Source: a virus. Taken from it: a DNA stretch of 64,000 bases. The position numbers and the translations under genes are program-made. Below the pieces are notes generated by a model. It saw nothing but the letters and a program-made list of their open reading frames with translations, was not told the DNA's origin and did not search any database. Location of the stretch: the IMG/VR virus record IMGVR_UViG_3300029258_002856, one strand, 5' to 3'. The stretch's first letter is position 1, and each line of letters begins with the position of its first letter. Of the stretch, positions 1 through 22,376 are shown piece by piece.

Positions 1-144
1 ACGTGGCTCACTCCCGACCAGGAAACAGTAGAGCGCCTCAAGAAAGCCGAAGCGTACAAGGAAGAACACGGGGTTTGGCCTCCCAATCTCAAGAAAGCTT
101 TCGAGGACCCGGTAGAGGCCAAAAAAAGGGCAGTGGAGAGCTAG
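1..144 (+). CDS. Partial hypothetical protein (C-terminus; start outside window)
   Basis: Frame 1 is open from base 1 (TWLTPDQETVERLKKAEAYKEEHGVWPPNLKKAFEDPVEAKKRAVES) to TAG at 142-144. It is more protein-like than the 3..191 track ORF. Confidence 0.6.
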   Translation, partial: TWLTPDQETVERLKKAEAYKEEHGVWPPNLKKAFEDPVEAKKRAVES

Positions 145-309
145 CGCTAAGCCTCTCCACTACCAGGACTCGCCGAAGGAGGTCAGCGTAACGGCGCTAC
201 AAGAACGCCAGCAGCACGACGAATGGTCTGATTACCATTGCCGCGGCACCTCCCTCGGATTTACAGTCCGAATTCCATATGGGCCTCCTTTCGTCCGAGT
301 CCTTGCATT

Positions 310-318
310 CTTATACCA
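310..318 (-). promoter_or_regulatory. Class B promoter-like motif TGGTATAAG (leftward)
   Basis: Reverse complement of CTTATACCA. It matches the GGTAyAAG motif before accessory cassettes and is followed by an AGGAGG SD on the minus strand. Confidence 0.5.
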
Positions 319-347
319 TTAAGCCTTTACGTCTTCGTATCTCATCT

Positions 348-356
348 CCTATACTT
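348..356 (+). promoter_or_regulatory. Class A promoter-like motif CCTATACTT upstream of RNAP gene
   Basis: The same motif family lies 20-50 nt upstream of starts at 8657, 10331, 17965, 21580, 25253, 31116 and 36621. Confidence 0.55.
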
Positions 357-379
357 CATTTGACTTTTGGAGGAACTCG

Positions 380-3300
380 ATGCCCGAACTTACGCCCATT
401 CTGGTGGACCCAGAGACCCGGCGCGACATGATTCGTGTCAAGGTCTTAGAGGGGTTGAAAGAGTCGTTTCCCCTCAAGGCCCGGAACCGCACTATCGAAG
501 TCGATAACCTCGAAGTCGATACGAAAGAATTCTCATCGACAGACCAGAAGAATGCTCTCTTGCGGGGGGACTCCCTCTTCGAGCGCGTGAAAGGGACGGT
601 TCGTCTCCGCGACAACAAGGGGAAGGTACTGAGCGAGGCATCGAACTTTACGCTAGCTCGCGTCCCATGGTTCACCCCACGCCACACCCTCATCGTAGGC
701 GGCAACGAGTACTCCATTTCCAACATGGTGCGTCCGAAGCCCGGCGTGTACGCACGAAAGCGTGCCAATGGGATTCTGGAAGCGAACTTCAACGTCGTGG
801 GCGGCGCGAACTTCAACGTGAGTATGGACCCCGAAAAGGGTGAACCGCAACTCGAGTACGGCGCGACGAAGGTACCCCTTTACCCCGTATTGCGGAGGGC
901 CGGGGTCAGCCACGAGCGTATCTCGAAAGCGTGGGGGAAGCAGCTGGCCGAAGCGAACTTCAAGAAGCTGTGGAAAAACTCGGGACGCACTATCGACAAG
1001 CTCTACGGGAAAGTCATTCCCGAGTACCGGCGCACTGCCGGTGCGGATACCGAGGCGAAGACGCGGGAAATATTTGCGCGTTACGCCGAAGCGAAGATGG
1101 ACCCCGACGTCAACCGTCAGACCCTCGGCAAGGGATACCGGGAAGTAACCCCCGACAGCCTGTTAGACGCCTCGGGGAAAGTCTTGCGCATCTTCAAGAA
1201 CGCGGACGAGATTGACGACCGGGATAACCTGGACTTCAAGTCCTTCCACTCCGTCGATGATTTCTTCAAAGAGCGTATCAAACTGGACGCACGAGAGATT
1301 GCGCGGAAGGCAGCAATCAAGTCCGAGTCGACTCCGGACGTGAAGCGTATCATCCCCCCTGGTCCGTTTACATCTGGCCTCGTGAAGTTCATCAATAGCT
1401 CCCAGCTTGCGTCAGTTCCTACGCAGACGAATCCCATGGAGCTCATTGACTCCGCGGTGCGCGTCACTTCCCTCGGGGAGGGTGGCATCTCGAGTGAGCG
1501 TGCGATTCCCATGGAAGCACGACAGGTACATGTCACCCAGATGGGAGCGTTGGACCCTATACGCACTCCTGAGTCTTTCCGGGCCGGGATCGATGTCCGC
1601 GCCGCGATGATGGCAAAGCGCGATGCGCGTGGAAACATCTACGTGCCCGTGCTGGACGCGAAAACGCGCCGGGGTAAGTACATCCGCGCAGGGGATTTGC
1701 AACGCTCGGTCGTCGCTTTTCCGGGACAACAGTTGAGGGGACAAGTAGAAGCCCTTGATAACGGTGAAATCAAACGCCTTGCAGCGTCGCGGGTTCAGTA
1801 CCAGATTCCACATGCTTCGGCACTCTATAGCCCCGCGACAAACCTGGTGCCGTTCCTCGAATCAGCACAAGGTAACCGGGCCATCATGGGTTCGAAGATG
1901 CAGGTTCAGGCCCTCTCTCTGGTGGGCCGAGAAGCTCCCATGGTCCAGGTCAAGTCGCAGACGGGGCCTACCTTCGAGCGCATCATGGGTGGGGTCATTA
2001 ACCCAGTCTCCCCGGTGTCTGGGGTGGTCAAGAAAATCGACAAGGACTACATCTACGTCCAACCGGACGGCGAGAAGACCGGAGCCAAGGGCAACAAGTA
2101 TGTAAAGATTCCGTATGAAACCAACTTTCCTCTCGCAGCCAAAACGTACCTTGACCACAAACTTGGAGTACAGAAAGGTGACAAGGTTTCTGCGGGTCAG
2201 CGCTTGGGCGAGTCCAACTTCACGGATAACGGGGTCCTGGCGCTGGGCAAGAATCTGCGCGTAGGCTTCATGGCTTATGACGGGGCGAACTCCAACGATG
2301 CCGTAGTCGTCAGTGAGGGCGGCGCGAAAAAGCTCACGTCCGAGCGCATGTACAAAATCGTGGTCCCTCGAGACCCGGACTTGACATTCAGCCGGGACAA
2401 GCACCGCACTTACTATGGACACGGATATACCAAGGACCAATACAAGCCTATCGATAAAGAAGGCGTGATTGCGCCGGGTACGCAGATTAATCCAGGTGAC
2501 CCCCTCGTCATGGGACTTCGCAAGACACAGCTCACCGCGGATGACGTACTTCTTGGACGGCTGCACAAGTCACTGGCGCGTCCGTTCCGTGAGAACGTAC
2601 ATGATTGGGACCATGACCACCCTGGCGAAGTCGTGGACGTCGTGAAGACGCCCAAGCGAATCGCCATTACTGTCAAGACACGAGAACCTGCTGGCATCGG
2701 AGACAAGGTTGCTGGGCGCTACGGCAATAAAGGGGTCATCTCGCAAATCGTTCCCGACGACCAGATGGTGCGAGACGAGAAGGATAGGCCTATCGACATC
2801 CTGATGACTCCCGCCGGGGTGGTATCTCGTATCAACCCGAGTCAGATTATCGAGACTGCCGTGGGGAAGGTCGCGGAGAAGACCGGAAAGCCGATTGCCG
2901 TAGAGAACTTCTCTGGGCGCAACAACGTTCAATGGGCCAAGGATTTACTCAAGAAACACGGACTCAAAGACAAGGAAACGGTGTACGACCCGCGTACCGG
3001 GCGCAAGATTCCCGGGGTGCTTGTTGGGCGGCAATATATCATGAAGCTCTTCAAGTCCACGGACACCAACTACTCAGCACGGGGCATCGAGAATTACGAC
3101 GTAAACCAGCAACCAGCTAAGGGGGGTACTCAGAGCGCCAAGGTGCTGGGTCGTATGGAGTTCGACGCGCTCCTCTCCCATGGAGCACGGAACGTCTTAC
3201 GAGAAGCCGCAACTCTGAAGAGCCAAAAGAATGACGAGTGGTGGCGCAACATGCAGCTCGGATACCCTACGCCACCTCCAAAGACCACTTTCGCTACTGA

Positions 3301-4732
3301 CAAGTTCCTTACGATGCTTACCGGGGCCGGAGTGCGCGTCGACCGGGAGAAGAACCAGCTTGCACTTGCCCCTCTCACGGACGCGGACACCTTGAAGCTC
3401 TCCTCAGGAGAAATCAAGGACGCCAAGTTGGTGCGTGCCAAGGACTTGAAGCCCGAGCGTGGCGGACTCTTCGACCCCGCAGTTACCGGGGGCGTTCGCG
3501 GAGGAAAATGGTCCCACGTCGCTTTAGCGGAGCCGGTGGTCAACCCCGTATTCCGTGACCCTGTTCGACGTCTCCTGGGGATGACTAACTCCCAACTAGA
3601 CCAGGCTATCCGGGAGAAGGGTGCGCGGCACATCAAGCGCGAACTCGGAAAGCTGGACCTGGATACCAGGGAAAAAGAACTCTACAAATCTCTCCGGGGA
3701 CGTAAAGGTTCTGCGCTGGATAACGATGTCAAGCAGCTCAAATATATCAAGGCTCTCAAGAAGCAGGGCCTCACTCCAGGTGACGCCTACGTCATTTCCA
3801 AAGTGCCAGTGGTGCCCCCAGTAGTGCGCCCAATCCTTCCCGGTAAAGGCGGCCAGGAACTCATCTACGGGGACATCAACCCTCTCTACCGCGACCTCGT
3901 GTACTTGAACAACCAGTTCAAAGATGTCAAGCAGTCCAAGCTGCTGCCCGACGAAGAGCAGCGTTTACGGCCTGCGTTGCAACAAGCAGTCGGGGCAGTT
4001 TACGGGGTAAATGACCCTATCACTGCCAAGTCCAAAGCGCGGGGGCACAAGGGGTTCCTCACATATATCTCCGGTAAGGGAAGTCCCAAGTTCGGGTACT
4101 TCCACTCTAAACTCATGCGCCGTACACAGGACGTATCTGGCCGCGGCACCATTGTTCCCGATGTAACGCTCGGCATGGATGAAGTGGGCCTCCCTGAAGA
4201 TATGCTGTGGTCCATGTACGGGAAATTCACCACCAAACGTCTGGTGGAGAAGGGTTACCAACCTCTTCAGGCCCAGCAGATGATTCAGGAGAAACATCCG
4301 GCTGCGCGAGAGGCGATGCTGCGAGAGGCCAAAGATAGGCCGGTGATGATTAACCGGGCTCCTACTCTTCACCGCTACAACATGATTGGGGCGTACGCCA
4401 GACCGATTCCGGGCAAGACCATTCGGGTCAATCCGTTCCTTGAGAAAGGAATGAACGCGGACTACGACGGCGATACGATGATGGTTCATGTGCCGGTGCA
4501 GTCCAAAGCTGTTGACGATGTGAAGAAGATGACGCTCTCCAACTTACTCTTCGGAGACAAGTCCCGGGATGAGCTCATGGTCTTCCCGCAGCACGAAGCC
4601 ATCATGGGTATCGCACATGCATCTGAGCAGGATTCCGGAGGCGTAGTTAAAAAATTTAAGACTCGGGGTGAAGCGATGAAGGCGTACCATGAAGGTAAAA
4701 TTGGATTAGGGACGCGAGTGAAAATAGGTTAG
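380..4732 (+). CDS. rpoB-rpoC(N): Phage multisubunit RNA polymerase: beta subunit fused to N-terminal/catalytic part of beta'
   Basis: Beta motifs: SLGEGGIS, GNRAIMGSKMQVQA, GDKVAGRYGNKGVIS, RINPSQ, GRMEFDALLSHGA. Beta' motifs follow: KPERGGLFDP, RTQDVSGRGTIVPD, NRAPTLHR and catalytic NADYDGD (nt 4454-4474). SD GGAGG. Confidence 0.95.
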   Translation: MPELTPILVDPETRRDMIRVKVLEGLKESFPLKARNRTIEVDNLEVDTKEFSSTDQKNALLRGDSLFERVKGTVRLRDNKGKVLSEASNFTLARVPWFTPRHTLIVGGNEYSISNMVRPKPGVYARKRANGILEANFNVVGGANFNVSMDPEKGEPQLEYGATKVPLYPVLRRAGVSHERISKAWGKQLAEANFKKLWKNSGRTIDKLYGKVIPEYRRTAGADTEAKTREIFARYAEAKMDPDVNRQTLGKGYREVTPDSLLDASGKVLRIFKNADEIDDRDNLDFKSFHSVDDFFKERIKLDAREIARKAAIKSESTPDVKRIIPPGPFTSGLVKFINSSQLASVPTQTNPMELIDSAVRVTSLGEGGISSERAIPMEARQVHVTQMGALDPIRTPESFRAGIDVRAAMMAKRDARGNIYVPVLDAKTRRGKYIRAGDLQRSVVAFPGQQLRGQVEALDNGEIKRLAASRVQYQIPHASALYSPATNLVPFLESAQGNRAIMGSKMQVQALSLVGREAPMVQVKSQTGPTFERIMGGVINPVSPVSGVVKKIDKDYIYVQPDGEKTGAKGNKYVKIPYETNFPLAAKTYLDHKLGVQKGDKVSAGQRLGESNFTDNGVLALGKNLRVGFMAYDGANSNDAVVVSEGGAKKLTSERMYKIVVPRDPDLTFSRDKHRTYYGHGYTKDQYKPIDKEGVIAPGTQINPGDPLVMGLRKTQLTADDVLLGRLHKSLARPFRENVHDWDHDHPGEVVDVVKTPKRIAITVKTREPAGIGDKVAGRYGNKGVISQIVPDDQMVRDEKDRPIDILMTPAGVVSRINPSQIIETAVGKVAEKTGKPIAVENFSGRNNVQWAKDLLKKHGLKDKETVYDPRTGRKIPGVLVGRQYIMKLFKSTDTNYSARGIENYDVNQQPAKGGTQSAKVLGRMEFDALLSHGARNVLREAATLKSQKNDEWWRNMQLGYPTPPPKTTFATDKFLTMLTGAGVRVDREKNQLALAPLTDADTLKLSSGEIKDAKLVRAKDLKPERGGLFDPAVTGGVRGGKWSHVALAEPVVNPVFRDPVRRLLGMTNSQLDQAIREKGARHIKRELGKLDLDTREKELYKSLRGRKGSALDNDVKQLKYIKALKKQGLTPGDAYVISKVPVVPPVVRPILPGKGGQELIYGDINPLYRDLVYLNNQFKDVKQSKLLPDEEQRLRPALQQAVGAVYGVNDPITAKSKARGHKGFLTYISGKGSPKFGYFHSKLMRRTQDVSGRGTIVPDVTLGMDEVGLPEDMLWSMYGKFTTKRLVEKGYQPLQAQQMIQEKHPAAREAMLREAKDRPVMINRAPTLHRYNMIGAYARPIPGKTIRVNPFLEKGMNADYDGDTMMVHVPVQSKAVDDVKKMTLSNLLFGDKSRDELMVFPQHEAIMGIAHASEQDSGGVVKKFKTRGEAMKAYHEGKIGLGTRVKIG

Positions 4733-6229
4733 ATGCCTTACGCCTCACCAGCACAACGCGCCGCAGTCTGGGCCAAACGCAATGCGCAAGCAGTCCTGAC
4801 TTCGGGAAACCCTGTCACCAAGCAGGAAGTGCACGATTACTACTCTAACCCGGTCATTAAGCAGCGTGTCTTGGCAGCCCTGGCAAACCGGGACCTTTTG
4901 GCAATCCAGTCAAGAAGCCCGGATGAGCAAATCGTCAGGCGCTACCGCAAGAAGAATGAGCCCATTCGTGTTGAGAACCCCGAGGACCTCGACTGGTATT
5001 CCTCTCGACGCTACACCGAGTTCCATCCTACGGTCGGGGAGAAGACGGATGAGGTCTGGGTGGATATCGACCCGGGCAAAAACAAGAATACCGAGGACAC
5101 CAAGGGTCCTACAAAATTTGTCTATGACCTCCTACGCACCATCCCCGCAGTCAAAGCCGTTGAGCTGGCGTTTTCTGGTGGGCGGGGATTTCATGTGCGT
5201 GGAAAACTAGATAAGCCTCGACCGACCAATGAAGCCCGTGGAATGCTCCAGGAGTATCTGAAACAGCTCCCTGAACGGCATACGGAACTCACGCTCAAGA
5301 CGCCGAGGCCAGATGAGATTCGGTTGGATGTCTCTACCTTGCACCCAAAAGGCTCTATCCGGGCTCCGTATTCTCTCAACGCAGAGACGGGTCTCGTAGC
5401 AGTACCGCTCGTTCCATCTCAGCTCGAGAAGTTCAACCCGCAGAAAGATGCGACACCACAAACGGTGTTGGGCAAGACCGAGTTCGCTCCCGGTATCCCT
5501 CAAGAGCGAAAAACATACCCCCTCCCCGATTTCAAGCGACCGAAAACTTGGACTCTCGCAATCCAAGAACACGATGCGCAACGGGCCGGGAAGCATTGGG
5601 ACCTTCGCCTCGTCGACCCTCGAACAACGCATGCCCACTCCTGGGCAGTGCCAAAGGCGCAGTTCCCGCAAGGCAATAGCCCGCTTCTGGCGGTACAGAC
5701 TCCGACACATACGGCGAGGTACGCTCTCACCTTCGGGGAACGCAAACCCAAGGAGATTCGGAAGGGGTATGGAAAGGGCGTCGTTCAAATTTTGCACAAG
5801 GAACCTGTAAAGGTCTTGTCGTCTTCGCCCGATAAAATTAAATTTGAGAGAGACGTGGACGGAAATCCGGAGAGGTACATGCTGTTCAAGTCAAAAGAAA
5901 ATTCATGGTTGATGCGCCGAATCAAAGAAGCGGGGCGTGCAGCTATGCTCAAGAAGTTGGGCGTCGACAAGAGTAAATTCGTGGGCAAGAAACCCTCTAA
6001 CACCGAGCTGGAAACCCCAATGGATGTCGAGGATGAGGGGCTCCCGGCAGGACAGCTTGCTCGTGCCCTCTCGGATATACCGACGGCTGCGGGGCGAGAG
6101 AACCGTGATGCTCAAGGCACTGATGATGTGGAGGGACGCCTCAACCGCACGACGACTTGGACTGAGCCTGACCACATCCCGATTGACTACGCTCAGGGTC
6201 CGTCGCCGGTTATGCCGGGGAAATTCTAA
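4733..6229 (+). CDS. LigD-like primase-polymerase (AEP) + 3'-phosphoesterase fusion, no ligase domain
   Basis: AEP motifs VWVDIDP, FSGGRGFHV, IRAPYSL. PE motifs EHDAQRAGKHWDLRL, HSWAVPK, LAVQTPTH, GYGKGVV. No KxDG adenylation domain seen. Confidence 0.85.
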   Translation: MPYASPAQRAAVWAKRNAQAVLTSGNPVTKQEVHDYYSNPVIKQRVLAALANRDLLAIQSRSPDEQIVRRYRKKNEPIRVENPEDLDWYSSRRYTEFHPTVGEKTDEVWVDIDPGKNKNTEDTKGPTKFVYDLLRTIPAVKAVELAFSGGRGFHVRGKLDKPRPTNEARGMLQEYLKQLPERHTELTLKTPRPDEIRLDVSTLHPKGSIRAPYSLNAETGLVAVPLVPSQLEKFNPQKDATPQTVLGKTEFAPGIPQERKTYPLPDFKRPKTWTLAIQEHDAQRAGKHWDLRLVDPRTTHAHSWAVPKAQFPQGNSPLLAVQTPTHTARYALTFGERKPKEIRKGYGKGVVQILHKEPVKVLSSSPDKIKFERDVDGNPERYMLFKSKENSWLMRRIKEAGRAAMLKKLGVDKSKFVGKKPSNTELETPMDVEDEGLPAGQLARALSDIPTAAGRENRDAQGTDDVEGRLNRTTTWTEPDHIPIDYAQGPSPVMPGKF

Positions 6230-8028
6230 TGGCTGAAGGTCAACCGTTCGGGCGCTGGCTCTTGAATACCCAGTTGCCTTCTGGGTTCAAGGTCAACTCC
6301 CCCGTGGGAAAGAAGCGCCTCAACCAAATGATGAATGACCTGGCGCGCAAGGACCCTACGCAATACACCACGACTATTGCAGGCCTTAAACGTCTAGGCG
6401 ATGAGCTTGCGACGCAGGAAGGCCTCTCCATCGGGCTGGATGACATCGAGCCTGAATACCGGAAACGGGATGCGCAGATGCGTCCCTTCCGTCAGAAGTT
6501 TCAGGCGGCACGTACAACCGCACAGAAGCGCCAGATACTGGAGCAGCTCCACGGAAAAATTACTGATGCCGCCATGAAGCACCGCGGGAGTCTCACGCAG
6601 CAAGTACAGAGCGGTGCTCGCGGTTCTCCCACTCAGTACATGAAGATTGTCGGTAGCCCGGTATACGCTCGGGATGCCAATGGAAAAGTTACTCCTTGGC
6701 TCATCCCACGTTCCTACAGTGAAGGGTTATCGGCTGCTGACTACTGGGCTGCGGGCAACGAAGCTATCTCGGATACCATCAAGTCGAGCACTGCGGTGTC
6801 CGAGCCCGGAGAGCTGTCCAAGATTCTCATTAACAACATGAACGATATCGTGGTGACCGAACAGGATTGCGGAACGGTCAATGGTATCCTCATGGACCCC
6901 AAAAACCCCGATGTTCAAGACCGTTATCTGGCTCGCAGTGAAGGGGGAGTGCGGAAAGACACCCTCATCAGTCCACAGGTGCAAGCCCGACTGGCCAAGA
7001 GCAAGAAGAAAATCCTGGTGCGTTCGCCGATGACTTGTGAGGCCGGTGATGGGGTCTGCCAGAAGTGCCAGGGTCTCAATGAGCGCGGGAACCTTCACAC
7101 AGTAGGCACCAATGTTGGCATCCGAGCAGCCCAGGCCATGGCGGAACCGCTCACCCAGTTCGCCCTCAATGCGAAGCATGGTGTTCGTACGGCCAAGAGC
7201 GACCGCTTGCAAGTTCACGGCATGCAGGGCTTTCGCCAGATGACAGAATCACCTCGGCAGTTCATGAACAAGGCGACCCTGGCAGGGGAAGAAGGGAAGG
7301 TCACGAAGATTGAGAAGGCCCCGCAAGGAGGACATTTCGTCTACGTCGGCAGCACCAAACATTACGTGACTCCCAACATCAACGTTGTGGCCAAGGTGGG
7401 ACAGAAGGTCGAACGCGGAGACGCGCTGAGCGGTGGGATACCCAAGCCAGATGAGGTGGTAGCCTTCAAAGGTTTGGGAGCTGGACGTCGATATATGGTC
7501 GATACGTTGAAGGAACTCTACAAGAACCAAGGACGTAATCTCGACCAACGACACTTCGAGCTGTTGGCCAAAGGCGAACTCAATCACGTACGTATCGTGG
7601 ATGACCCAGGTAGGAACTTCATTCCCGGCGATATTGTAGATTACAATCACTTCCGTTCGATTTTACGGGGTAATACGAAGACTCTTCCATTGACGCAAGC
7701 GCGCGGGGAGACCCTCGGGAAAGAGCACCTCCACTTCTCCGCCGGGACTCGTGTGACTCCTTCGGTGGAGCGGGCACTCCACAAAGAGAAAATCAAGGAT
7801 GTCATCATTGCACCCCGGGCTCCTGAGGTTGAGTTTGTGATGAAGCCCGCTACTAGAGCCCCGCTTCTTAACCCAGATTGGATGGCTCGTTTGGCGCACC
7901 GGAACCTGAAGACAACGCTTCAACAAGCTGCGCACTTTGGTGATGTTACGAATGTCCACGGAACAAATCCCATCCCGGCCTATGTTTTTGGCGTAGAATT
8001 TGGGCAGGGAGAAGAGGGACGATACTGA
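6229..8028 (+). CDS. rpoC(C): RNA polymerase beta' C-terminal subunit (RpoC2-like)
   Basis: GLSIGLDDI; bridge-helix region YSEGLSAADY...DIVVTEQDCGT; Zn site SPMTCEAGDGVCQKCQG; trigger loop AAQAMAEPLTQ...KHG; WMARLAH. Confidence 0.93.
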   Translation: MAEGQPFGRWLLNTQLPSGFKVNSPVGKKRLNQMMNDLARKDPTQYTTTIAGLKRLGDELATQEGLSIGLDDIEPEYRKRDAQMRPFRQKFQAARTTAQKRQILEQLHGKITDAAMKHRGSLTQQVQSGARGSPTQYMKIVGSPVYARDANGKVTPWLIPRSYSEGLSAADYWAAGNEAISDTIKSSTAVSEPGELSKILINNMNDIVVTEQDCGTVNGILMDPKNPDVQDRYLARSEGGVRKDTLISPQVQARLAKSKKKILVRSPMTCEAGDGVCQKCQGLNERGNLHTVGTNVGIRAAQAMAEPLTQFALNAKHGVRTAKSDRLQVHGMQGFRQMTESPRQFMNKATLAGEEGKVTKIEKAPQGGHFVYVGSTKHYVTPNINVVAKVGQKVERGDALSGGIPKPDEVVAFKGLGAGRRYMVDTLKELYKNQGRNLDQRHFELLAKGELNHVRIVDDPGRNFIPGDIVDYNHFRSILRGNTKTLPLTQARGETLGKEHLHFSAGTRVTPSVERALHKEKIKDVIIAPRAPEVEFVMKPATRAPLLNPDWMARLAHRNLKTTLQQAAHFGDVTNVHGTNPIPAYVFGVEFGQGEEGRY

Positions 8029-8576
8029 TGTCGAATTTCGAAGCAGGCTACAACGCTACACTAGCCTCTCTGGGAATAACCAAGGAGGCTCGCATCTGGC
8101 CCGCACTTCGAGGATTCGGGCAGAGGTTCGCCAAAAACTTCAAGCAAATTGCCGTTGGGAGTCCCCTCCAGGCCACGAAAGAAATCATGGCTGGGAAGGC
8201 TCTGAAGCCCGGAGGACTTATTCGAGCGGGATTCGACCCCGGAAAAGGCAAGATGGGACTTCTGATGGGTGGCCTCTTCTACGGGCTCCCGGCCTATCAA
8301 GCGTACAAGGTATATAAGAGCGATGCTCCGAACAAGGCTGAAGAAATCGGCAAGATTCTCGGGGGGACCGCTGCTGGCCTGGGGACCTGGCGTGCTTACG
8401 GGATGTTGGGGTCTATGTTGGCGACGCCAATAGGCGAGCGTCTCGGTGGGGCAGCAGGACGATTAGGACAAACGCTGGCCGGAAAACCTGTTCCGAAAGA
8501 AGCCCCGCCCCCTCCGCCTCCCCGCACAGGGATGTTGCCAGCGCAACCTCAATATGGGATGTACCCCTATTACTAG
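8028..8576 (+). CDS. Basic Gly-rich putative virion internal/membrane-active protein
   Basis: N-terminal G-x4-L-x3-G motif then KEA, hydrophobic Gly-rich segments and a P/Q/Y-rich tail. Confidence 0.6.
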   Translation: MSNFEAGYNATLASLGITKEARIWPALRGFGQRFAKNFKQIAVGSPLQATKEIMAGKALKPGGLIRAGFDPGKGKMGLLMGGLFYGLPAYQAYKVYKSDAPNKAEEIGKILGGTAAGLGTWRAYGMLGSMLATPIGERLGGAAGRLGQTLAGKPVPKEAPPPPPPRTGMLPAQPQYGMYPYY

Positions 8577-8600
8577 GGGTTGGGTTTTTTACAAAGGCGG

Positions 8601-8609
8601 CATATACTT
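8601..8609 (+). promoter_or_regulatory. Class A promoter-like motif CATATACTT
   Basis: Intergenic, upstream of SD AGGAG and ATG 8657. Confidence 0.45.
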
Positions 8610-8656
8610 CACGGTGAGTTTTAACCGATCACCGGTCAAAAAGGAGAGGTAGACAA

Positions 8657-9208
8657 ATGAATCACCAGCAACTTCTTGAGCAAGTCAAGTTGGCTTACGC
8701 TTACGGCGCAAGCGTGGCGCTTCAGGAAGCTGGCGTGGACCAGGCTACTGCGGAGCAGGCCGGGATCAAGCTGGCTGAGGAAGCCGTTACCCAAGAGAAG
8801 CGAGCCGAAGAAGACGAAGAGGGTATCCACCCGGCGCTCCTGGCTCTCCTGGGTGCCGGTGGCGGCGCGGCCCTCGGCGCAGGCGCGGGGGGACTCGTCG
8901 GCAAGCTGACGGGTAAGAACCTGCTTTCACGGGGCATGCGGCCACTAGGTAAGGCCGTTGACCGTCTCGGTGGTCCCGCGAATGTGCCCAGCGTACCGTC
9001 TGGCGGCCTCATCGACACCAAGAAACTCCAAGCGTTGCAAGAGGCGGCACAACTGTCACCGAAGGAGCAGCTGGCGAACAAGCTGCACGACCTCCTGATG
9101 GGTGCGGGTCGCATGGGCTCCATTCGTGGCAGTGCGGCGGCGGGCGCGGGAATGGGCGGTGTCGCGGGTGGTACGGCGGGCGGCTTGCTCGGCGGATTGC
9201 AGGACTAA
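8657..9208 (+). CDS. Gly/Ala-rich putative virion protein with hydrophobic segments
   Basis: SD AGGAG; KLA motifs; glycine-zipper-like segments (LLGAGGGAALGAGAGG, AAAGAGMGGVAGGTAGG). Confidence 0.6.
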   Translation: MNHQQLLEQVKLAYAYGASVALQEAGVDQATAEQAGIKLAEEAVTQEKRAEEDEEGIHPALLALLGAGGGAALGAGAGGLVGKLTGKNLLSRGMRPLGKAVDRLGGPANVPSVPSGGLIDTKKLQALQEAAQLSPKEQLANKLHDLLMGAGRMGSIRGSAAAGAGMGGVAGGTAGGLLGGLQD

Positions 9209-9225
9209 GGGCGGCTAAAGAGGAG

Positions 9226-10260
9226 TTGAAAATGCATATTTTCAAACGAGCACACTTCCGCGGAATGCTCCACGAGCTTCAGCGACGGGGCTACGTCACG
9301 CTTCCGTCTGAGAAGATTGCGGAGGAAGTGGCGGATGCAGTAGCCGATGAGTACGAGGACGAAGTGATTCCCCCGGTTACTGATGAGTCGGGCTTGACGG
9401 AAGATGAGGCTGCGGAAGCCGTCAATAAGCTTGTCGAAGTCGCCGAAGTCATCGCGGAGAAGTCCGGTGCTGCTGTCGACCCGGCCTACCAGCAGAAGGT
9501 CGCGTCGGTTACCACCGATGAGATGTACAAAGAGGCCGCATCCCAGGCCGCCATCTCTCTCATCGAGAAGGCCGCATTGGAAGGACCCATTATCCCCGGG
9601 CAGAAGCCCCCGGAGGATGGGCTCGACGCCACCAACGAGGCGCAAGTCGACGCGACGGACAACCCCTCGGCGGAGGTCATTGTCCCGAAGGGTGAGTCCT
9701 CGATGGACGCCACCCCCGGCGCGGTGGGACATGAGGCAATCCGTCCAGACCAGCCCGGGGCTAATGACGGTGATACTCCCGTGGAGGTAGCCGATGTGAA
9801 AGTCTCGTCCGTCGATGCCCTCCTGGCTAAACTCGGCATGGGAGCTAGCACCATGGCCGCCCCCTCTCCGGCGGGCGATGGTTCTCCCGGAGCTGCCGGG
9901 GGGAAGGGCGATGGGCGCAAGGACCTCGAGACCAACCTCGGGATGGGCAAGGACATGATTGTCCCGCAGGGGGATACCAAGCAGACTCCTCCGGCAGTCC
10001 CGGTGCCCCTCAAGAGTGCTCCGGCAGCTGCGGGCGTGGACATCACGCAGAAGGACAAGCCGCAGACTGACGTGCAAGCCGACATCAGTAAGGCGGCGTC
10101 TCTTCTTCTGAAGACCGAACGTGGGCGTGCCATCCTGAAGAAGATTGGCGAAGAGCTCAAGGAAGATGAGGAAGAAGAGAAGAAGAAGGACGACGAAGAG
10201 AAGGCCGCTGCTGAAATCCTTCGTCGTGCTCTGGGCCACGCCTCCCAAGCCGTCAGTTAA
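9226..10260 (+). CDS. Acidic putative head scaffold/internal protein
   Basis: SD GAGGAG; acidic and Pro-rich; repeated KxA motifs (EKIA, QKVAS, KEAAS, EKAA, SKAAS). Confidence 0.6.
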   Translation: MKMHIFKRAHFRGMLHELQRRGYVTLPSEKIAEEVADAVADEYEDEVIPPVTDESGLTEDEAAEAVNKLVEVAEVIAEKSGAAVDPAYQQKVASVTTDEMYKEAASQAAISLIEKAALEGPIIPGQKPPEDGLDATNEAQVDATDNPSAEVIVPKGESSMDATPGAVGHEAIRPDQPGANDGDTPVEVADVKVSSVDALLAKLGMGASTMAAPSPAGDGSPGAAGGKGDGRKDLETNLGMGKDMIVPQGDTKQTPPAVPVPLKSAPAAAGVDITQKDKPQTDVQADISKAASLLLKTERGRAILKKIGEELKEDEEEEKKKDDEEKAAAEILRRALGHASQAVS

Positions 10261-10330: not shown

Positions 10331-12982
10331 ATGCCTGGAATGTCAATGTCACCGAACGTAAACGCCTACGGCGAAGTGCCAGCAGCAGAGCAGGCCGAAG
10401 AGCTGTTCAAGCAGGAGTTCGCGAAGGCAGCGTGGGCGGTAATCCTGTCGAAGTTCCCGGACCTCTCACCTTCAGTGGTGACGTTCAAAATTCTGGAGAC
10501 TGACGCAGAGACCGGCAAGGGTGTTGGCGCGTTCATCCTCCTCTATGAGCAAAAACCTATCTACATCCCTGTGGTGATGGTAGACAGCAAGCTCAAACCC
10601 CTGGAGATGTTCTACTACAAAGAGATGAACATCTTCCTGCCGCTCTCTAAGACCTGGCTGGAGGAAGTCTCCAAAATGAGTTTGGATGAGATGGGACGCG
10701 GGGAGGACATTCCAGACAGTGTTCCCCGGGACGTCAACATCCGGGACCTCGTGATGCCCCCGTACACGCAGAGTGGGCGCGTGGGGTTGGCGCATGACCT
10801 GGAGCACGGAGCACAAGCGCTGTTCAAAGAGGCTGAGAACCAGGAGGTGGAGATACACCCCCGGTTCCTTCACGCCATTCGCCGTGCGCCGAAGGTGGCC
10901 CTCGACGGCATCAAGGTGGCGTTCCAGCACAATCCCGCACTACTCCAGAAGATTGCCAAGGTTTACGGAGTAAAAGAACTGACTGCTGCCATCACTGAGG
11001 GCTACCAGAAGGCGCACATGTCTTCGCAGCTCCAAGAGAAGGTGGCGTCGGTACGAGAAGGTGCGCTCGAAGTTTTCACCAAAGAGGCCTCTTCGGACCG
11101 ACTCCGTGAAGTGTTTGGACCCAAGGCCGGTGAAGCCTTCATGGAAATTCTCACCAAGGGTTACGCCGTACAGGACACCCGGCACGTGAAGCACGCGGCC
11201 ATTTCGGTGAAACTCGAGACCGAGGCGAAGCTCCAGGCTCCTGGCCCTGCGCCGGGGTGGTTCAAGCTGTTCTTCGTGGATGGTCCAGCCGGGAACTACC
11301 TGGTCATCCCCCACCCGAAGCGGTCGGAGAAGTATGTCGGGAACGGCGACTACTACTACACTGGCAGTGACTACCGCAACTTCGACAGCTTCAACAAGGA
11401 GCCCGCCCTCGTCGTGGACGTCAATGGCAAAGAGGCATGGCTGGCCAAGGGCGTCTTGGGGATTCCTATTTACGAGGAGGGAGACGTCAACCAGACAAAG
11501 CTCTGGAAGATGCTCAATGCTGCGGGGAAGGGTGACACTCCGCGTCCTTACTCCTATGGCTTTTTCATCTACGCCGGTCCGCAGGGGGTTCAAGCTACGG
11601 AACCCATCGACGTTCGTCAGGTGACGGATACCGGGGACGGGCGTGTTCGTATTCAATCGGATTTTGGGCCGAAGTTCATCTGGGACACGGACCCCACGCG
11701 GCACACCATCGACCACGCCATGAACGGCGAGTTTGTTTTTTTGCCCAAGAACACCAAGTGGGTGGAAATCGGAAAGGTGCCCGAGGAAGCGAATAAACGG
11801 GACTTCGAGAAGATGCGGGATGTCCGGCGTCTAGCTAGCCAGCATCGTCGTGAGACTCTGCTGAGTGACCCGAAGCTCATCTTTCGGTGGATGAACCAGA
11901 TTCTTCAGGAGAGCGGAGCCAAGAAGGTCAACGTCAAACGCGCAGGGGAAGACCTGTGGTGGATTGAAGGTGACTCGAAGCCCTACACTCTGGACGTAGC
12001 CATCGACAAAGTTGCTCGGGAGTACGATGTCACCACGGATGCGGCGCTCGACGTACTGAAGGAAGCTCAGCACCTTGGGGTGGCCGAGGCGTACATCGTT
12101 GACCATGCATCGGGACGAAAAGTTCAAGAGTCGTTCCAGAAGCACGCGCAACCACCAGGACAGGTGGGTGCGGAGATTCCGATGCCTCCGGGTCCGCAAG
12201 CAGGACCGCCTCCGGGCGGCATGCCTGCCCCTCCTGGAGACCCGAGCATGGCGGGAATGGCCCCTCCTCCGATGCCTACCTCTCCGATGACACCCACGGA
12301 CCTGGCTATCGCCGAGGTAGTGGACAACCTGCGCGAGCAAAACAATATGCAAATGCAGCAAGCGCAGGACCACATGATGATGCAGCAACAGCAGATGCAG
12401 ATGGAGGCGGAAAACAACGACCGCCTCATCGGTGTCCTCGAGGGTATTCAACAACGGTCACAAGAAATCTCGGCGGCTACCGGAGGCATGATTCCTGCGG
12501 GGGCAGAACAAGCTCCAGCACAGGCAGCGCAGATGCTCGCCCCTATCCCGCCCGAAGAACCCCCTCCCCCTCCGCAACCAGTGATGGATGAGGCTGGGGC
12601 AGAAGTCACCCCCGACATGGTGGCGCAGCAAATCAACCCCTCGATGATTGAAGATGCCGAGGCTCTTCAGAACGAGGGGGTCTTCGACACTGCGGCGATT
12701 GCAATGTTGGCCGCAGCACCGGTACTCCAAGATATCGTCTCTTCTTACATCCCCAACCTGGAGAAGTGTCTGGACAACGTGGGACGTATTCTCCTCACCC
12801 TTTGGATGCGGGAGGAAGAGACCAAAGAAGCCATCGGGGATGAAGCATTCATCGTCCTGGAGGACAAGCTCCGTACTGTCTTCAAGAACCTGGGCGATAC
12901 CATTCTCGAAATCAACCGCAACGCGGTGAGCACCGAGGACTCTGCACAGGAAATGTCGCAGATGCTTGCTGACCAGCAGTAA
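10331..12982 (+). CDS. Large putative head morphogenesis protein with P/Q/M-rich C-terminal region
   Basis: 883-aa ORF with SD in the head cluster; KxA motifs (FKEA, EKVAS, QKHA). Function not recognised. Confidence 0.6.
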   Translation: MPGMSMSPNVNAYGEVPAAEQAEELFKQEFAKAAWAVILSKFPDLSPSVVTFKILETDAETGKGVGAFILLYEQKPIYIPVVMVDSKLKPLEMFYYKEMNIFLPLSKTWLEEVSKMSLDEMGRGEDIPDSVPRDVNIRDLVMPPYTQSGRVGLAHDLEHGAQALFKEAENQEVEIHPRFLHAIRRAPKVALDGIKVAFQHNPALLQKIAKVYGVKELTAAITEGYQKAHMSSQLQEKVASVREGALEVFTKEASSDRLREVFGPKAGEAFMEILTKGYAVQDTRHVKHAAISVKLETEAKLQAPGPAPGWFKLFFVDGPAGNYLVIPHPKRSEKYVGNGDYYYTGSDYRNFDSFNKEPALVVDVNGKEAWLAKGVLGIPIYEEGDVNQTKLWKMLNAAGKGDTPRPYSYGFFIYAGPQGVQATEPIDVRQVTDTGDGRVRIQSDFGPKFIWDTDPTRHTIDHAMNGEFVFLPKNTKWVEIGKVPEEANKRDFEKMRDVRRLASQHRRETLLSDPKLIFRWMNQILQESGAKKVNVKRAGEDLWWIEGDSKPYTLDVAIDKVAREYDVTTDAALDVLKEAQHLGVAEAYIVDHASGRKVQESFQKHAQPPGQVGAEIPMPPGPQAGPPPGGMPAPPGDPSMAGMAPPPMPTSPMTPTDLAIAEVVDNLREQNNMQMQQAQDHMMMQQQQMQMEAENNDRLIGVLEGIQQRSQEISAATGGMIPAGAEQAPAQAAQMLAPIPPEEPPPPPQPVMDEAGAEVTPDMVAQQINPSMIEDAEALQNEGVFDTAAIAMLAAAPVLQDIVSSYIPNLEKCLDNVGRILLTLWMREEETKEAIGDEAFIVLEDKLRTVFKNLGDTILEINRNAVSTEDSAQEMSQMLADQQ

Positions 12983-15415: not shown

Positions 15416-15819
15416 TGCGTGCTCTTGCTGCGGAAATTTCGCACACGCTGAGACAGCGTGCGAAGCTGGAGAAAATTGCGGCGGACACGGAGTCGGCAGG
15501 CGTCAGCTACGAAGCCCAGAAGGGTAGTGTTGATGTTTGCAACCGCCTTTACGGCGTACTCCAGAAAGAAGCGTCTTTCAAAGGTGATGGGAAAGACGAC
15601 CTTCGTTTCTGCGAACTCATCACCAAGATGGCGAGTGCTCTTGGGAAAGAGAAGCCTTCCGCGGAGACTCAGCTCAAGTTGGCGGGTGCGGTGATGGTTG
15701 ATTTGGCGCTTCAGCGCGCGCTCAATGACGACATCCCCTACGCAGAGAAGACTAAACTGGCCGCGCAGCAGCTTTACGGGCGGGAATACCTCGCGGACTT
15801 GCTCACCGGAGTTCTGTAG
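15415..15819 (+). CDS. Putative head protein
   Basis: Coupled ORF; EKIAA, QKEAS, LKLAG, TKLAA motifs. Confidence 0.65.
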   Translation: MRALAAEISHTLRQRAKLEKIAADTESAGVSYEAQKGSVDVCNRLYGVLQKEASFKGDGKDDLRFCELITKMASALGKEKPSAETQLKLAGAVMVDLALQRALNDDIPYAEKTKLAAQQLYGREYLADLLTGVL

Positions 15820-17900
15820 TGGATAAGATTATCCGACTCGAGTCACACTTCCCGCAGACGGGAGAGTTGACGGTACAGCCTGTTCTCCTCTGGGCGAACA
15901 ACCGCCCGTGTGTTGAGTCGATAACTAAGCACGCCAGCGTCGGTCACGCCTACTTCAGGACGATACAGCCGATGCCGGGGCACTCCATCGTGTACGTGCT
16001 CGCAGTAAGCAACTGGGAGCACTACGGGGAAAACCGTAACGGCGATGGCTTCCCGGAATTCCCGTACAAGGACCACGAGACTCCTCCTTGGATTGCTCCG
16101 GAGGACGTGCTCCCACTTCACTACAAAACGTTCGAGCAGTTTGGACATAACTACCGTCACCATGCCAACAAGGACCCGAAGAAGGCCGTTGGTAAAGTGA
16201 TGAAGGCGTTCTGGAATCCCAGCATGCACCGCGTGGAGCTGCTGGTTGATTTGGAGGACGAGAAAGCTCCGGACCTGGCTGAGCGCATTGCGAACGGGGA
16301 GTATCCCCCCGTAAGCATGGGTACGAAGGTCCCGTACGATGTTTGCACCATCTGCGGCAACCGTGCACCTACCCGAGCACAGTACTGCGACCACTTGAAG
16401 TTCCAGATGCGCGAAGTCATCAACGGGATGAAGGTGGCGGCCCTCAACCCTCGACCGAAATTTTTTGATATCTCCTGGGTGTTCCGTCCTGCGGACCCAA
16501 CGGCTTTCATGATGAAGAAAGTTGCGGAAGACGCGCCCTACGAGTTACTGAGTGGTTCCCAGGCTGGGGATTACCTGGGCGAGATGCAAGAGCGCAAGTT
16601 GGCCGCGCATAAGCTGGCGGTCATCGACAAAGTAGTCCAAGGCCTCCCCGTTGACGCGAAGACTGACGGTATCGATCCCGCGCAGTTGAACAACGTGCGG
16701 GGAATGCGCACCATCGTCATCATCGCAGGGCAGAACACGCCTTCGTTCCCGGACAATCTACTTCAGAACCTGGCGACGCAGCCTCTCAACCGGGTGCTGT
16801 CTTCTCTCTACGCTTCGGGAATGACGCTCAACACTCCCGAGTTGATGAAGATTGTCGCGTGCAACGCTGCCCCGGGAATGAAGGTGCCTGAGCGAGCACT
16901 CGATAACGGAGTAGCGTTACAGCGCAGCATTATCGAACTGTTCGGCGACGCGCCCCAACTTCTCGACAAGTTCGACAAGAGCGCGGCTCTCGACGTGGGT
17001 GTAGCGCACATAGACAACGCTATCATAGACCTTCTTACTCCGTACCGGGAAAAGCGTGCTGGGATTTCCGAGTACCTCAAGCGCCGTCTTGTTCCCGAGA
17101 AGTATCGAGAGGAGACCCCCTATACGTCCCAAATGACAATCACGGACCCGGCCACAGGCTTCACCTACGGGACCACTCGAGGTGCTGCCATCCGGGCGCA
17201 CGACGAAATAGCCAAACGGAACCTCTACAAAGTTCTGGGTGGTGGTGCACTTCTCGGTGGTGCATACAAGCTCCTCTCTACCGGACTGCGACGTGCAGGT
17301 TACGGGAAGCTTCGACCCCTTGCGGGACTCGCGCTTGGTGCTCTTGGGGCCTATCACTGGCCGTCGATGGGGGCGCACTACATGACAGACCAGGGTATTC
17401 CGGTTCCTATCACCACGGAGCTTGCAAAGGTGGGAGCCTTCAACCCCAAGTCCATCGCTCTGCCCCTCTTCGGAACCTTGGGGACTATGGCGCTTCTCGC
17501 TCACGACTACGGGTCGCGGATGGAGCAAGGTATCCCGATGGGGCACCCGTACCTGCCACTCTCCCGGCGCATACTCGACAAAGTAGAGGCGTTCGCACAA
17601 GAACATCCGCTGTTGGCTACTGGGATTGGGACGCTGGCACTCCATCGTTTGGGGAAGACGCGACCTTTACAGTTTCTGGGAAAAACGGTAATCCCTAAAG
17701 CTACAGATGTTGCACAACGAGGAATGAGTTCAGTGAAGGACCGCGCTTCTGCGGCGATGAAAGCTTTGGCAGGAGGAGAAACCAAATTGTCGGCGTACAT
17801 GGAAGACTTGATTCCTGAACCGACGGACACGGTGATGCTCCCCGAAGTGGACATTGACAAAGTAGCGGAACGCGTCGGATTTTTGATTGTCGAGGGGTAG
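15819..17900 (+). CDS. Prohead (maturation) protease, HK97/assemblin-type serine protease, with hydrophobic C-terminal extension
   Basis: ENRNGDGF; HHANKD (candidate catalytic His); VSMGTKVPYDVCTICGN (candidate catalytic Ser plus CxxC); FFDISWVFRPADPTA. Lies upstream of scaffold-like and capsid genes. GTG start. Confidence 0.8.
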   Translation: MDKIIRLESHFPQTGELTVQPVLLWANNRPCVESITKHASVGHAYFRTIQPMPGHSIVYVLAVSNWEHYGENRNGDGFPEFPYKDHETPPWIAPEDVLPLHYKTFEQFGHNYRHHANKDPKKAVGKVMKAFWNPSMHRVELLVDLEDEKAPDLAERIANGEYPPVSMGTKVPYDVCTICGNRAPTRAQYCDHLKFQMREVINGMKVAALNPRPKFFDISWVFRPADPTAFMMKKVAEDAPYELLSGSQAGDYLGEMQERKLAAHKLAVIDKVVQGLPVDAKTDGIDPAQLNNVRGMRTIVIIAGQNTPSFPDNLLQNLATQPLNRVLSSLYASGMTLNTPELMKIVACNAAPGMKVPERALDNGVALQRSIIELFGDAPQLLDKFDKSAALDVGVAHIDNAIIDLLTPYREKRAGISEYLKRRLVPEKYREETPYTSQMTITDPATGFTYGTTRGAAIRAHDEIAKRNLYKVLGGGALLGGAYKLLSTGLRRAGYGKLRPLAGLALGALGAYHWPSMGAHYMTDQGIPVPITTELAKVGAFNPKSIALPLFGTLGTMALLAHDYGSRMEQGIPMGHPYLPLSRRILDKVEAFAQEHPLLATGIGTLALHRLGKTRPLQFLGKTVIPKATDVAQRGMSSVKDRASAAMKALAGGETKLSAYMEDLIPEPTDTVMLPEVDIDKVAERVGFLIVEG

Positions 17901-21579: not shown

Positions 21580-21849
21580 ATGTCTGTAGCTGTAGACCAC
21601 AATTTTCCGCACGATGGCGACATGTTAATCGTGAATGCATCGGGTGATCCGATAGAGGGTGTAGTTATTCGAATATTTGAACATACGAAGTTCTTTCAGA
21701 ATGACGTGGATACCTGGGTGGGAGAAACCATCACCGATGCTAATGGAGAGTGGGTCGACCCCATCTATCTGCCGGAAGCACAAAACTGGGTCGTGCATTT
21801 CCAAAAGGCCGCGGAGTATGGCCCAGACCACGTGGAGATTACGACGTAA
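21580..21849 (+). CDS. Hypothetical beta-rich protein
   Basis: 89 aa with SD. Confidence 0.65.
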   Translation: MSVAVDHNFPHDGDMLIVNASGDPIEGVVIRIFEHTKFFQNDVDTWVGETITDANGEWVDPIYLPEAQNWVVHFQKAAEYGPDHVEITT

Positions 21850-22376
21850 TGTACTCGGCGTTGCTGGTGGGGGCGGGTATCCTCATCATCATCCTCGTGG
21901 TGATGTTTCATTTTCGCATGCTCCTCTACCGTCATACCCAACTCGTGAAAAAGAAGGATAGCATCCCGCCGCCAGTTGAAGACGGAAATTTGGAGAAGCT
22001 CCAAGAGCTGACCTCGAAGCTTGAAAAGAGGGATAGCGCCCTTTACAAGAGTGACTTCCGGTTCAAGGCAGTGGCGGACATCGCGTTCTGTGGGATATTC
22101 ATCCATAAAGATGGGGTCGTGGCCTTTGCTAACGAGACCTTTGCAGAGTTGGTAGGCCTTTCAGTCGGAGAAGTAGTAGGCCGCGATTGCATGGATTGGG
22201 TGCACACCGAAGACGTCTTCAAGGTGGAGAACCACATCCAGCAGAACACCCAACGGGCAATCCACATTCGATTGAAAACTTTCCGGGGGGTCTATGAGCG
22301 CGTACGAACCCGGGGGCAGAACATTTACTACCCGGGAATCGGAGACTGTCGTATTGTAGCTGTAGCGGAGCTGTGA
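21849..22376 (+). CDS. Membrane-anchored standalone PAS-domain protein
   Basis: ATG 21849 is coupled to the previous stop. N-terminal TM (LLVGAGILIIILVVMF), short coiled coil, then PAS-like RFKAVADIAFCGIFIHKDGVVAFANETFAELVGLSVGEVVGRDCMDWVHTED. Confidence 0.7.
   Translation: MYSALLVGAGILIIILVVMFHFRMLLYRHTQLVKKKDSIPPPVEDGNLEKLQELTSKLEKRDSALYKSDFRFKAVADIAFCGIFIHKDGVVAFANETFAELVGLSVGEVVGRDCMDWVHTEDVFKVENHIQQNTQRAIHIRLKTFRGVYERVRTRGQNIYYPGIGDCRIVAVAEL

Follow-up and report, generated by a model that had tools for sequence, protein, structure and literature searches.

How can a phage RNA polymerase (RNAP) work when its beta subunit runs directly into half of beta', and the other half is a separate gene? 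This question is raised by positions 380-8028 of a 64,000-nt stretch of viral DNA (IMG/VR record IMGVR_UViG_3300029258_002856) from a large uncultured marine phage; the whole of this stretch is called the window below. The products of the three genes concerned are P0001 (380-4732, chain 1), P0002 (4733-6229) and P0003 (6229-8028, chain 2). A preliminary description, made from the letters of the sequence, had noticed a fused gene for beta and the N-terminal part of beta' (beta'N) and a separate gene for its C-terminal part (beta'C), and we confirmed this observation. It covered neither the LigD-like gene in the middle nor the single-chain relatives of about 2050 aa that we found in other phages. 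Because such single chains exist, the window form may be read as the cut version of a whole fusion. Judged from sequence, both chains together were shown to carry every catalytic element tested.

Fusion of Beta to the Front Half of Beta'

The features of the three genes, with the evidence by which each was placed, are as follows.

380-4732, + strand: chain 1 gene (P0001, 1450 aa), complete beta plus the beta' N-half (Pfam, PDB phmmer, homologues)
380-3355, + strand: beta part, P0001 residues 1-992 (MAFFT mapping to Salmonella, in E. coli numbering, and S. aureus)
1388-1477, + strand: altered rifampicin cluster I (alignment)
2528-2566, + strand: beta flap-tip helix motif, P0001 717-729 (alignment)
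2699-2734, + strand: GDKVAGRYGNKG, the beta barrel lysine motif, P0001 774-785 (alignment)
3344-3382, + strand: fusion junction, REKNQ/LALAPLTD (alignment, AlphaFold2 model)
3356-4729, + strand: beta' N-half with clamp, clamp helices and double-psi barrel, ending in ...GTRVKIG (alignment, Foldseek)
3461-3535, + strand: site of the absent beta' zinc-binding domain (alignment)
3653-3757, + strand: clamp helices, P0001 about 1092-1126 (alignment)
4454-4474, + strand: NADYDGD, P0001 1359-1365 (alignment)
4733-6229, + strand: LigD-like gene (P0002, 498 aa; Pfam, PDB, motifs)
6229-8028, + strand: chain 2 gene (P0003, 599 aa), beta' C-half (Pfam, alignment, AlphaFold2)
6742-6840, + strand: bridge helix, P0003 172-204 (alignment)
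7126-7182, + strand: trigger loop with His317, P0003 300-318 (alignment)

The Pfam domains of both subunits were found in the single frame of P0001, namely Rpb2_3 and Rpb2_6 of beta (PF00562, E 1.5e-45) and Rpb1_1 and Rpb1_2 of beta' (PF00623, E 3.3e-21). In a phmmer search of the PDB, residues 90-994 matched solved bacterial beta (best E 5.5e-71) and residues 1060-1449 matched beta' (E 7e-41). To place the junction, the two window chains were aligned with those of Salmonella phage Arash, two unsplit relatives (P0158 and P0147), Salmonella beta and beta' (in E. coli numbering) and S. aureus. The final beta residue (1342) aligned at P0001 992, and beta' was picked up near residue 22 at P0001 ~995, so that the two parts meet without a linker and beta' has lost ~20 residues at its start. 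The beta::beta'N fusion claimed before is thereby established, and the motif TMLTGAGVRVD, which had been placed at the beta C-terminus, lies at P0001 978-988 (nt 3311-3343). The junction did not change in length across two homologue alignments. An AlphaFold2 model of P0001 900-1450 (predicted local distance difference test, pLDDT, 75.5) contained ordered strands through the junction at pLDDT 70-84. With this model and that of P0003, Foldseek retrieved bacterial beta', cyanobacterial gamma and plastid RpoC1 at probability 1.0.

The lysine motif GDKxxGRHGNKG of beta is present as GDKVAGRYGNKG, and the aspartate triad of beta' as NADYDGD. E. coli-specific beta inserts are missing. E. coli beta' 64-98, the zinc-binding domain with its four cysteines, is replaced by TGG in P0001, and the identical deletion was found in Arash and in the unsplit P0158 and P0147; there is not one cysteine in the 1450 residues of P0001. 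The flap-tip helix and the clamp helices, which are known from bacteria to dock sigma, were kept in the alignment. Rifampicin cluster I is altered at classic resistance positions (D516 to T and H526 to S in E. coli numbering), and therefore rifampicin-resistant transcription is predicted.

Chain 2 and the Position of the Cut

P0003 carries Rpb1_5, aligns to beta' from about E. coli 568-579 through the C-terminus, and matches the beta' C-half of solved structures (E 7.5e-42). Its sequence starts with MAEGQPFGRWLL; E. coli 579 pairs with residue 12. The catalytic histidine of the trigger loop is His317, the SI3 insert is absent, and the C-terminus is conserved to the end. There are exactly four cysteines (C214, C270, C277 and C280), all in the second zinc site. 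The AlphaFold2 model had a pLDDT of 76.7 and matched bacterial beta' in Foldseek with TMq 0.48-0.58. A separate beta'C gene had thus been recognized correctly (599 aa, 1.5 kb downstream of chain 1), as had the compact size of the enzyme (1450 + 599 = 2049 aa). Chain 1 is not a fusion with whole beta', as it stops near E. coli beta' 551 and the remainder is in the second gene.

The split had been assigned to the rpoC1/rpoC2 position of cyanobacteria and plastids. The linker is indeed the same one, after the double-psi barrel, while the residue differs by about 12. P0001 ends near E. coli beta' 551; in cyanobacterial gamma (624-626 aa) the equivalent residue is ~556-559. The cyanobacterial cut lies ~12 residues more C-terminal, because P0003 residue 26 pairs with RpoC2 residue 14. 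In E. coli numbering the phage cut is at about 551/568 and the cyanobacterial cut at about 580 (P0003 residue ~13); the latter falls after the GRxxL motif, which the phage retains in its C-half. The mapping by profile and alignment that the preliminary description had suggested therefore located both points, the fusion at P0001 992/995 and the split at about E. coli beta' 551/568.

Distribution of Split and Single-Chain Forms

The fused chain is widespread. A protein search returned more than 120 clusters (at 90% identity) of ~1450-aa proteins with beta and beta' domains, many of them intein-bearing, and the same fusion is encoded on 255 IMG/VR stretches. The best 80 of these 255 stretches were almost all full-length, at 41-75% identity, on contigs of up to 198 kb. 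Wherever downstream sequence was present, beta'C was a separate downstream gene on the same strand, after a gap of 0.6-5.7 kb with variable content, and a portal-like gene lay upstream on the same strand in about 80 loci. The cultured members are Salmonella phage Arash and Vibrio phages D69, D148 and D181. The combination had been called unusual; this holds against the literature, but it is common in metagenomes and has gone unremarked in deposited phage genomes.

When longer proteins were searched with P0003, about 60 clusters of single chains appeared, ~2000-2110 aa in length (longer with inteins), all with beta and beta' domains and on phage-sized contigs. These are collinear with the two window chains: in P0158, P0001 9-1449 corresponds to 4-1463 and P0003 7-594 to 1470-2040. 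Across the single chains, 4-12 residues separate the P0001 match from the P0003 match. The cut-site loop does not differ in length between the split and the unsplit forms, and in the alignment the cuts of Arash and of the window fall in one and the same column.

Beta and beta' were shown to be always fused across the family, as one chain of ~2050 aa or cut in two. An exhaustive HMMER search with the beta'N part as query returned 1314 representatives (E up to 1e-30), of which the best 150 were classified. The fused chains comprised 74 split forms, 37 unsplit forms and 23 whose C side was uncertain, and another 10 were split forms truncated at the N-terminus. Only 3-5 were apparently unfused; their sequences begin within the junction motif, so that they resemble truncated ORFs (open reading frames) more than genuine unfused forms.

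Trees were rooted with Salmonella, Acinetobacter and Staphylococcus and comprised 46 rows of ~1430 columns. All 24 of the 24 split forms fell into one clade, with support of 99 in both FastTree and IQ-TREE, which requires one state change. An unsplit lineage was basal in the free IQ-TREE tree (support 96). The single chains are collinear, the split forms make one clade, and Arash shares the column of the cut; therefore the split most likely arose once, from a single-chain beta::beta' gene, as far as sequence comparison can tell.

The relatives differ in what is inserted into the chains. Inserts of 120-850 aa, inteins or other, cluster at catalytic sites: 48 were counted at the NADYDGD region (P0001 1354-1382), 38 at the GDK...GNKG region (P0001 762-818), 22 at 370-444, 35 at 557-589 and 7 in the trigger loop (P0003 300-344), while the window genes have none. 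Vibrio phage D181 (L002) has group I introns at 7515-7795 and 3718-3925 (Rfam RF00028, 100-103 bits), each beside a homing-endonuclease gene; one interrupts the fused RNAP gene, which is intact in D69, and the other is placed a short way ahead of the portal-like gene. A subclade of fused chains of ~1600 aa, made up of P0090 and about 30 proteins related to it, all outside the window, carries an inorganic pyrophosphatase (InPase) domain (PF18823, E 8e-28) in beta. The insert occupies P0090 593-707, equal to about P0001 557-589, and PF00719 was in addition found in P0104. It would be unusual for an RNA polymerase to contain its own pyrophosphatase. Two beta'C chains, P0123 and P0124 (1096-1263 aa), are 48-49% identical to P0003, and P0123 has a GNAT acetyltransferase domain (PF13508/PF00583). 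After the phage family, the best cellular beta' matches were compact ~1230-aa proteins of the Candidate Phyla Radiation (Kaiserbacteria, Parcubacteria), at 26-28% identity and E about 1e-38, a likeness that may reflect shared compactness and not ancestry.

Operon Layout and the LigD-Like Gene

Four genes of the + strand lie end to end (380-4732, 4733-6229, 6229-8028 and 8028-8576), with the following further features.

326-355, + strand: sigma70-like promoter match, TTTACG, 18-nt spacer, TATACT (consensus scan)
369-374, + strand: Shine-Dalgarno sequence GGAGGA, with the ATG at 380 lying 5 nt downstream (sequence)
8028-8576, + strand: fourth coupled gene, 182 aa, Gly/Ala-rich with a Pro-rich tail (ORF list, synteny)
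8563-8590, + strand: terminator-like hairpin (8563-8580) and T-run, closing the four-gene unit (sequence scan)

The ATG of P0002 follows immediately after the TAG of chain 1, the start of P0003 overlaps the stop of P0002 (TAATG), and the start of the 182-aa gene overlaps the stop of P0003 (TGATG). By its sequence, P0002 is predicted to be translationally coupled to both RNAP genes. The 182-aa protein had no match in Pfam and PHROG searches; its gene directly follows beta'C in most relatives of roughly at least 55% identity.

P0002 contains a LigD primase-polymerase domain (residues 69-248, PF21686, E 5.8e-16) and a LigD 3'-phosphoesterase domain (residues 278-395, PF13298, E 9.6e-8), followed by a tail of ~100 aa; no ligase domain was found in it by Pfam. 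Its closest solved proteins are the archaeal-type LigD phosphoesterase 3p4h (E 8.6e-8) and the non-homologous end-joining polymerase 5dmu (E 1e-3). The motifs DxD, SGxRGxHV and HxDxR are intact, those of the archaeo-eukaryotic primase type reading VWVDIDPG, SGGRGFHV and IRLDVS and those of the phosphoesterase, also intact, QEH...HWDLRL...SWAVPK. A full-length homologue occupies the same gap in 22 of the 22 relatives of at least 60% identity with enough sequence, and in the subclade of ~52% identity larger phosphoesterase-domain proteins stand there. We read the LigD-like gene as putative cargo in a permissive gap, possibly co-packaged.

One of the larger proteins of the ~52% subclade was scanned, a 939-aa protein (L059 15166-17985, in the gap of a 53%-identity relative) with LigD phosphoesterase, ATP-dependent DNA ligase (PF01068), DUF4269 and C39 peptidase domains, which we take to resemble the polyvalent injected proteins of phages. 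The gap of another relative contains a ferritin-like gene (PF00210; L033 14470-15030).

The operon is situated within a head module: genes for a head protease (15819-17900) and for a gp5-like hub (29461-31044) follow downstream in the window. Most neighbouring ORFs of the window had no match in Pfam and PHROGs. An ORF of 883 aa at 10331-12982, 2.3 kb downstream of the end of beta'C, is conserved across much of the split clade and has a partial match in Vibrio phages. In the virion module, an ORF of 208 aa (21750-22376, + strand) contains a PAS domain (PAS_9, E 3.8e-7), which is unexpected in a phage structural region.

Alpha, Omega, Sigma and Probable Virion Packaging

No alpha or sigma gene had been seen in the window, and for the window this holds. 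Sigma was searched by phmmer with Arash Gp10 and nine other sigma-like proteins of relatives, which found no match there, and none of the 16 mid-sized window ORFs scanned had an alpha domain; the window begins just 380 nt ahead of the fused gene. The subunit search also covered four near-complete IMG/VR relatives (95-100% complete) and Arash. Each of these genomes has one beta barrel and one beta' barrel, in one frame, and neither alpha (PF01000, PF01193) nor omega (PF01192) was found in any of the five. Each has two sigma70-like genes. The first, a gene for 315-403 aa situated 9-14 kb upstream of the fused gene, encodes region 2; region 4 is also present in 3 of the 4 IMG/VR relatives, and Arash Gp196 has region 2 only. 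The other (239-255 aa) has region 3 and lies about 41 kb upstream in the closest near-complete relative. The region 2+4 sigma70 protein of that relative (G001; L092 987-2196) contains zinc-ribbon-like matches, which fall between its regions 1.2 and 2.

Purified Arash virions have been analysed by proteomics. Gp206, the fused chain, was the most detected protein (3516 spectra, 100% coverage), and Gp216, the beta'C chain (1210 spectra), sigma-like Gp010 (467) and the portal (877) were also listed, while Gp196 was unlisted (PMC10585845). The virions also contain RNA ligases and a helicase (PMC10585845). By analogy with these relatives, the window enzyme is probably sigma-dependent, alpha-less and virion-borne.

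Alternative Explanations

The fusion or the split could be an artefact of assembly or sequencing, or the gene could be decaying. We give this practically no credence. Three sequencing runs, each belonging to a different study of marine sediment or seawater and possibly made from the source samples, contain the segment 2800-6800 with zero differences in contigs of ~96.7 kb, and in a fourth study short identical contigs span both gene boundaries. Hundreds of independent contigs and four cultured phage genomes have the same junction and cut, and the catalytic motifs are intact, contrary to decay. From the identity of the three runs, the 255 IMG/VR stretches and the cultured phages, we therefore conclude that this is no assembly artefact. 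Rejoining of the halves after transcription or translation, by an intron, an intein or translational bypass, would make the mature enzyme one chain, and it gains some plausibility from the wealth of inteins in the relatives and from the group I intron with homing endonuclease inside the fused gene of D181. Even so it is highly improbable: positions 1-9000 had no Rfam match at E up to 0.1, Pfam found an intein domain in none of P0001, P0002 and P0003, the cut site is free of inserts in all relatives, P0002 starts and stops on its own and is a conserved enzyme, and the gap of Arash consists of nine genes on both strands. The history of the cut could also be reversed, the split layout being ancestral and the single chains of ~2050 aa having later re-fused beta'N and beta'C. 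An approximately unbiased (AU) test permits an arrangement in which the split clade and an unsplit clade are sisters (p 0.56), and the tree constrained in this way is 2.3 log-likelihood units better. We nevertheless consider this order of events unlikely, as beta' is continuous in the bacterial outgroup, as it needs three events (split, fuse, re-fuse) against two (fuse, split) when counted from separate beta and beta', as an unsplit lineage stands at the base of the free tree, and as the gap content is highly variable, which is expected for a secondary insertion site.

Two further alternatives concern the partners of a single-origin, two-chain core. The LigD-like protein might work together with the polymerase, for instance as an injected enzyme for priming or for the processing of ends on the incoming DNA; coupling on both sides, the invariable presence in the subclade of at least 60% identity, the recurrence of LigD phosphoesterase modules in the gap of a second subclade, once with an ATP-dependent ligase, and the RNA ligases and helicase of Arash virions speak for it. 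Yet most of the clade, Arash and the Vibrio phages among them, has no such gene in the gap, and gap content is otherwise unrelated between lineages (e.g., ferritin-like and unknown proteins), so that we find a partnership quite doubtful and prefer cargo. It is also conceivable, though we would not expect it, that the chains assemble on host alpha2 (and omega) and that the enzyme is a hybrid and not an autonomous polymerase. All cellular RNAPs need the alpha platform, whereas five relatives have no phage alpha or omega, and the C-terminal region of beta', which contacts omega in bacteria, is conserved to its end. Against a hybrid, a covalent beta-beta' tether removes the main job of the platform, and the non-virion RNAPs of phiKZ and AR9 function without alpha-like subunits (PMC7598289). 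The Arash virion proteome lists phage proteins only, so that a packaged host alpha is neither supported nor excluded by it (PMC10585845).

Several points weigh against an autonomous, virion-borne enzyme cut once from a single chain. As to its origin, monophyly of the unsplit forms was compatible with the AU test, the branch to the outgroup is long, and the polarity was derived from the continuous beta' of the outgroup and event counting alone. As to its use, packaging, sigma use and absence of alpha would be carried over to the window phage from relatives of 30-63% identity, recruitment of host alpha or omega could still occur, and the Arash authors stated that abundant infection proteins might contaminate virion preparations (PMC10585845). 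The promoter match at 326-355 is the sole match in 1-9300, which is below the shuffle expectation, and is weak evidence.

Proposed Model and Its Significance

We propose a two-polypeptide catalytic core. Chain 1 would provide beta tethered to the beta' clamp, the clamp helices and the Mg-binding NADYDGD barrel, and chain 2 would provide the bridge helix, the trigger loop and the second zinc site of beta'. A single-chain beta::beta' gene would have been cut once, in a short surface loop past the beta' barrel, as other genes settled there. The gap would now hold 0.6-5.7 kb of variable cargo, in the window the LigD-like polymerase/phosphoesterase. The two chains would reassemble non-covalently, and the covalent beta-beta' tether would replace the missing alpha2 platform. 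Phage sigma70-family proteins encoded elsewhere would guide the enzyme to promoters. Based on the Arash virion proteome, the enzyme would be produced late, along with the head genes, and would be packed in the capsid, from which it would be injected to begin transcription. Taken as a whole, this model of a two-polypeptide core with single-chain origin, reassembly, sigma use and virion delivery appears likely to us. That it represents a third kind of phage multisubunit RNAP, a tethered minimal core with no need for alpha or omega that uses sigma70 factors and is delivered in the virion together with repair enzymes such as the LigD-like protein, is offered as a tentative suggestion.

To our knowledge, known phage multisubunit RNAPs are of two sorts, fragmented ones (phiKZ, AR9) and single chains that can barely be recognised (crAss-like phages, P23-45). 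The present family is clearly bacterial-like, yet assembly platform, beta' zinc domain and all lineage-specific inserts are absent, and it occurs in one- and two-chain forms. Should the family be such a third kind of enzyme, these forms would be a natural experiment on RNAP assembly. Three questions would become testable, namely whether a covalent beta-beta' link can substitute for alpha2, how sigma functions on a core without the zinc-binding domain, and how infection is started by a virion-borne, bacterial-type holoenzyme. Cultured models are available in Salmonella and Vibrio, and a single-chain, sigma-dependent polymerase of ~2050 aa could serve as a compact tool.

Comparison with Known Systems

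Division of beta' in the linker past the catalytic double-psi barrel is shared with cyanobacterial and plastid RpoC1 (gamma)/RpoC2. In contrast to the phage enzyme, the cyanobacterial one has beta as a separate subunit, possesses alpha and omega, and keeps the zinc-binding domain. Its RpoC2, with 1323 aa in the solved enzyme, is more than twice as long as the phage C-half, which is without an SI3-type insert. The beta C-terminus is joined to the beta' N-terminus in the rpoB-rpoC fusions of Helicobacter and Wolbachia and in engineered E. coli beta::beta', but these have whole beta' and depend on alpha2 and omega. Compared with Helicobacter and Wolbachia, beta' of the window has lost its first ~20 residues and the zinc domain and is cut in two.

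Among phages, Arash (OQ632216.1) is like the window in having the beta::beta'N fusion, the column of the cut and the zinc-domain deletion (Gp206, 1525 aa; Gp216, 606 aa), at identities of 36% for chain 1 and 30-32% for chain 2. Arash and Vibrio phage D69 also share the layout of a portal or portal-like gene, a small gene and the fused gene. Unlike the window, Arash has nine genes on both strands (4.8 kb) in the gap and no LigD-like gene there, and in D181 the fused gene carries a group I intron. The single chains (such as P0132, P0158 and P0147, on contigs of 130-198 kb) are collinear with the window chains and share the junction, the zinc-domain deletion and the compactness, but they are uncut and only 31-36% identical to chain 1 and 26-35% to chain 2. 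No cultured phage with the single-chain form was present in the phage collection, and no paper on it was found.

The Arash paper and record name the proteins beta and beta', and the fusion and the split are unremarked (PMC10585845). Nor was the layout described in the Sokolova review of jumbo-phage RNAPs (PMC7598289), in the jumbo-phage survey of Iyer et al. (PMC7824862) or in Weinheimer and Aylward (2020), in which a fusion or split of the window kind goes unmentioned (PMC7481178). The two-chain layout is thus apparently undescribed in the full-text literature searched, most subscription journals lying outside that search. The mReC phages of the latter work are likewise uncultured tailed phages whose bacterial-like beta and beta' are recognisable by COG profiles (PMC7481178). 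Identity of the mReC clade with the window family was rejected on the supplementary-table rows considered, in which beta (920-1563 aa) is separate and beta' (~900-1370 aa) unsplit (PMC7481178).

The enzymes of the phiKZ/AR9 type are phage-encoded, have no alpha and omega, and one of them is packed in the virion (PMC7598289). Their beta' cuts coincide with the cyanobacterial cut site after the barrel (PMC7598289). In phiKZ and AR9, beta is split into two or three polypeptides and never fused to beta', and there are two enzyme sets and no sigma homologue, whereas the relatives of the window have one enzyme set, two sigma70-like genes and a beta that is intact and fused.

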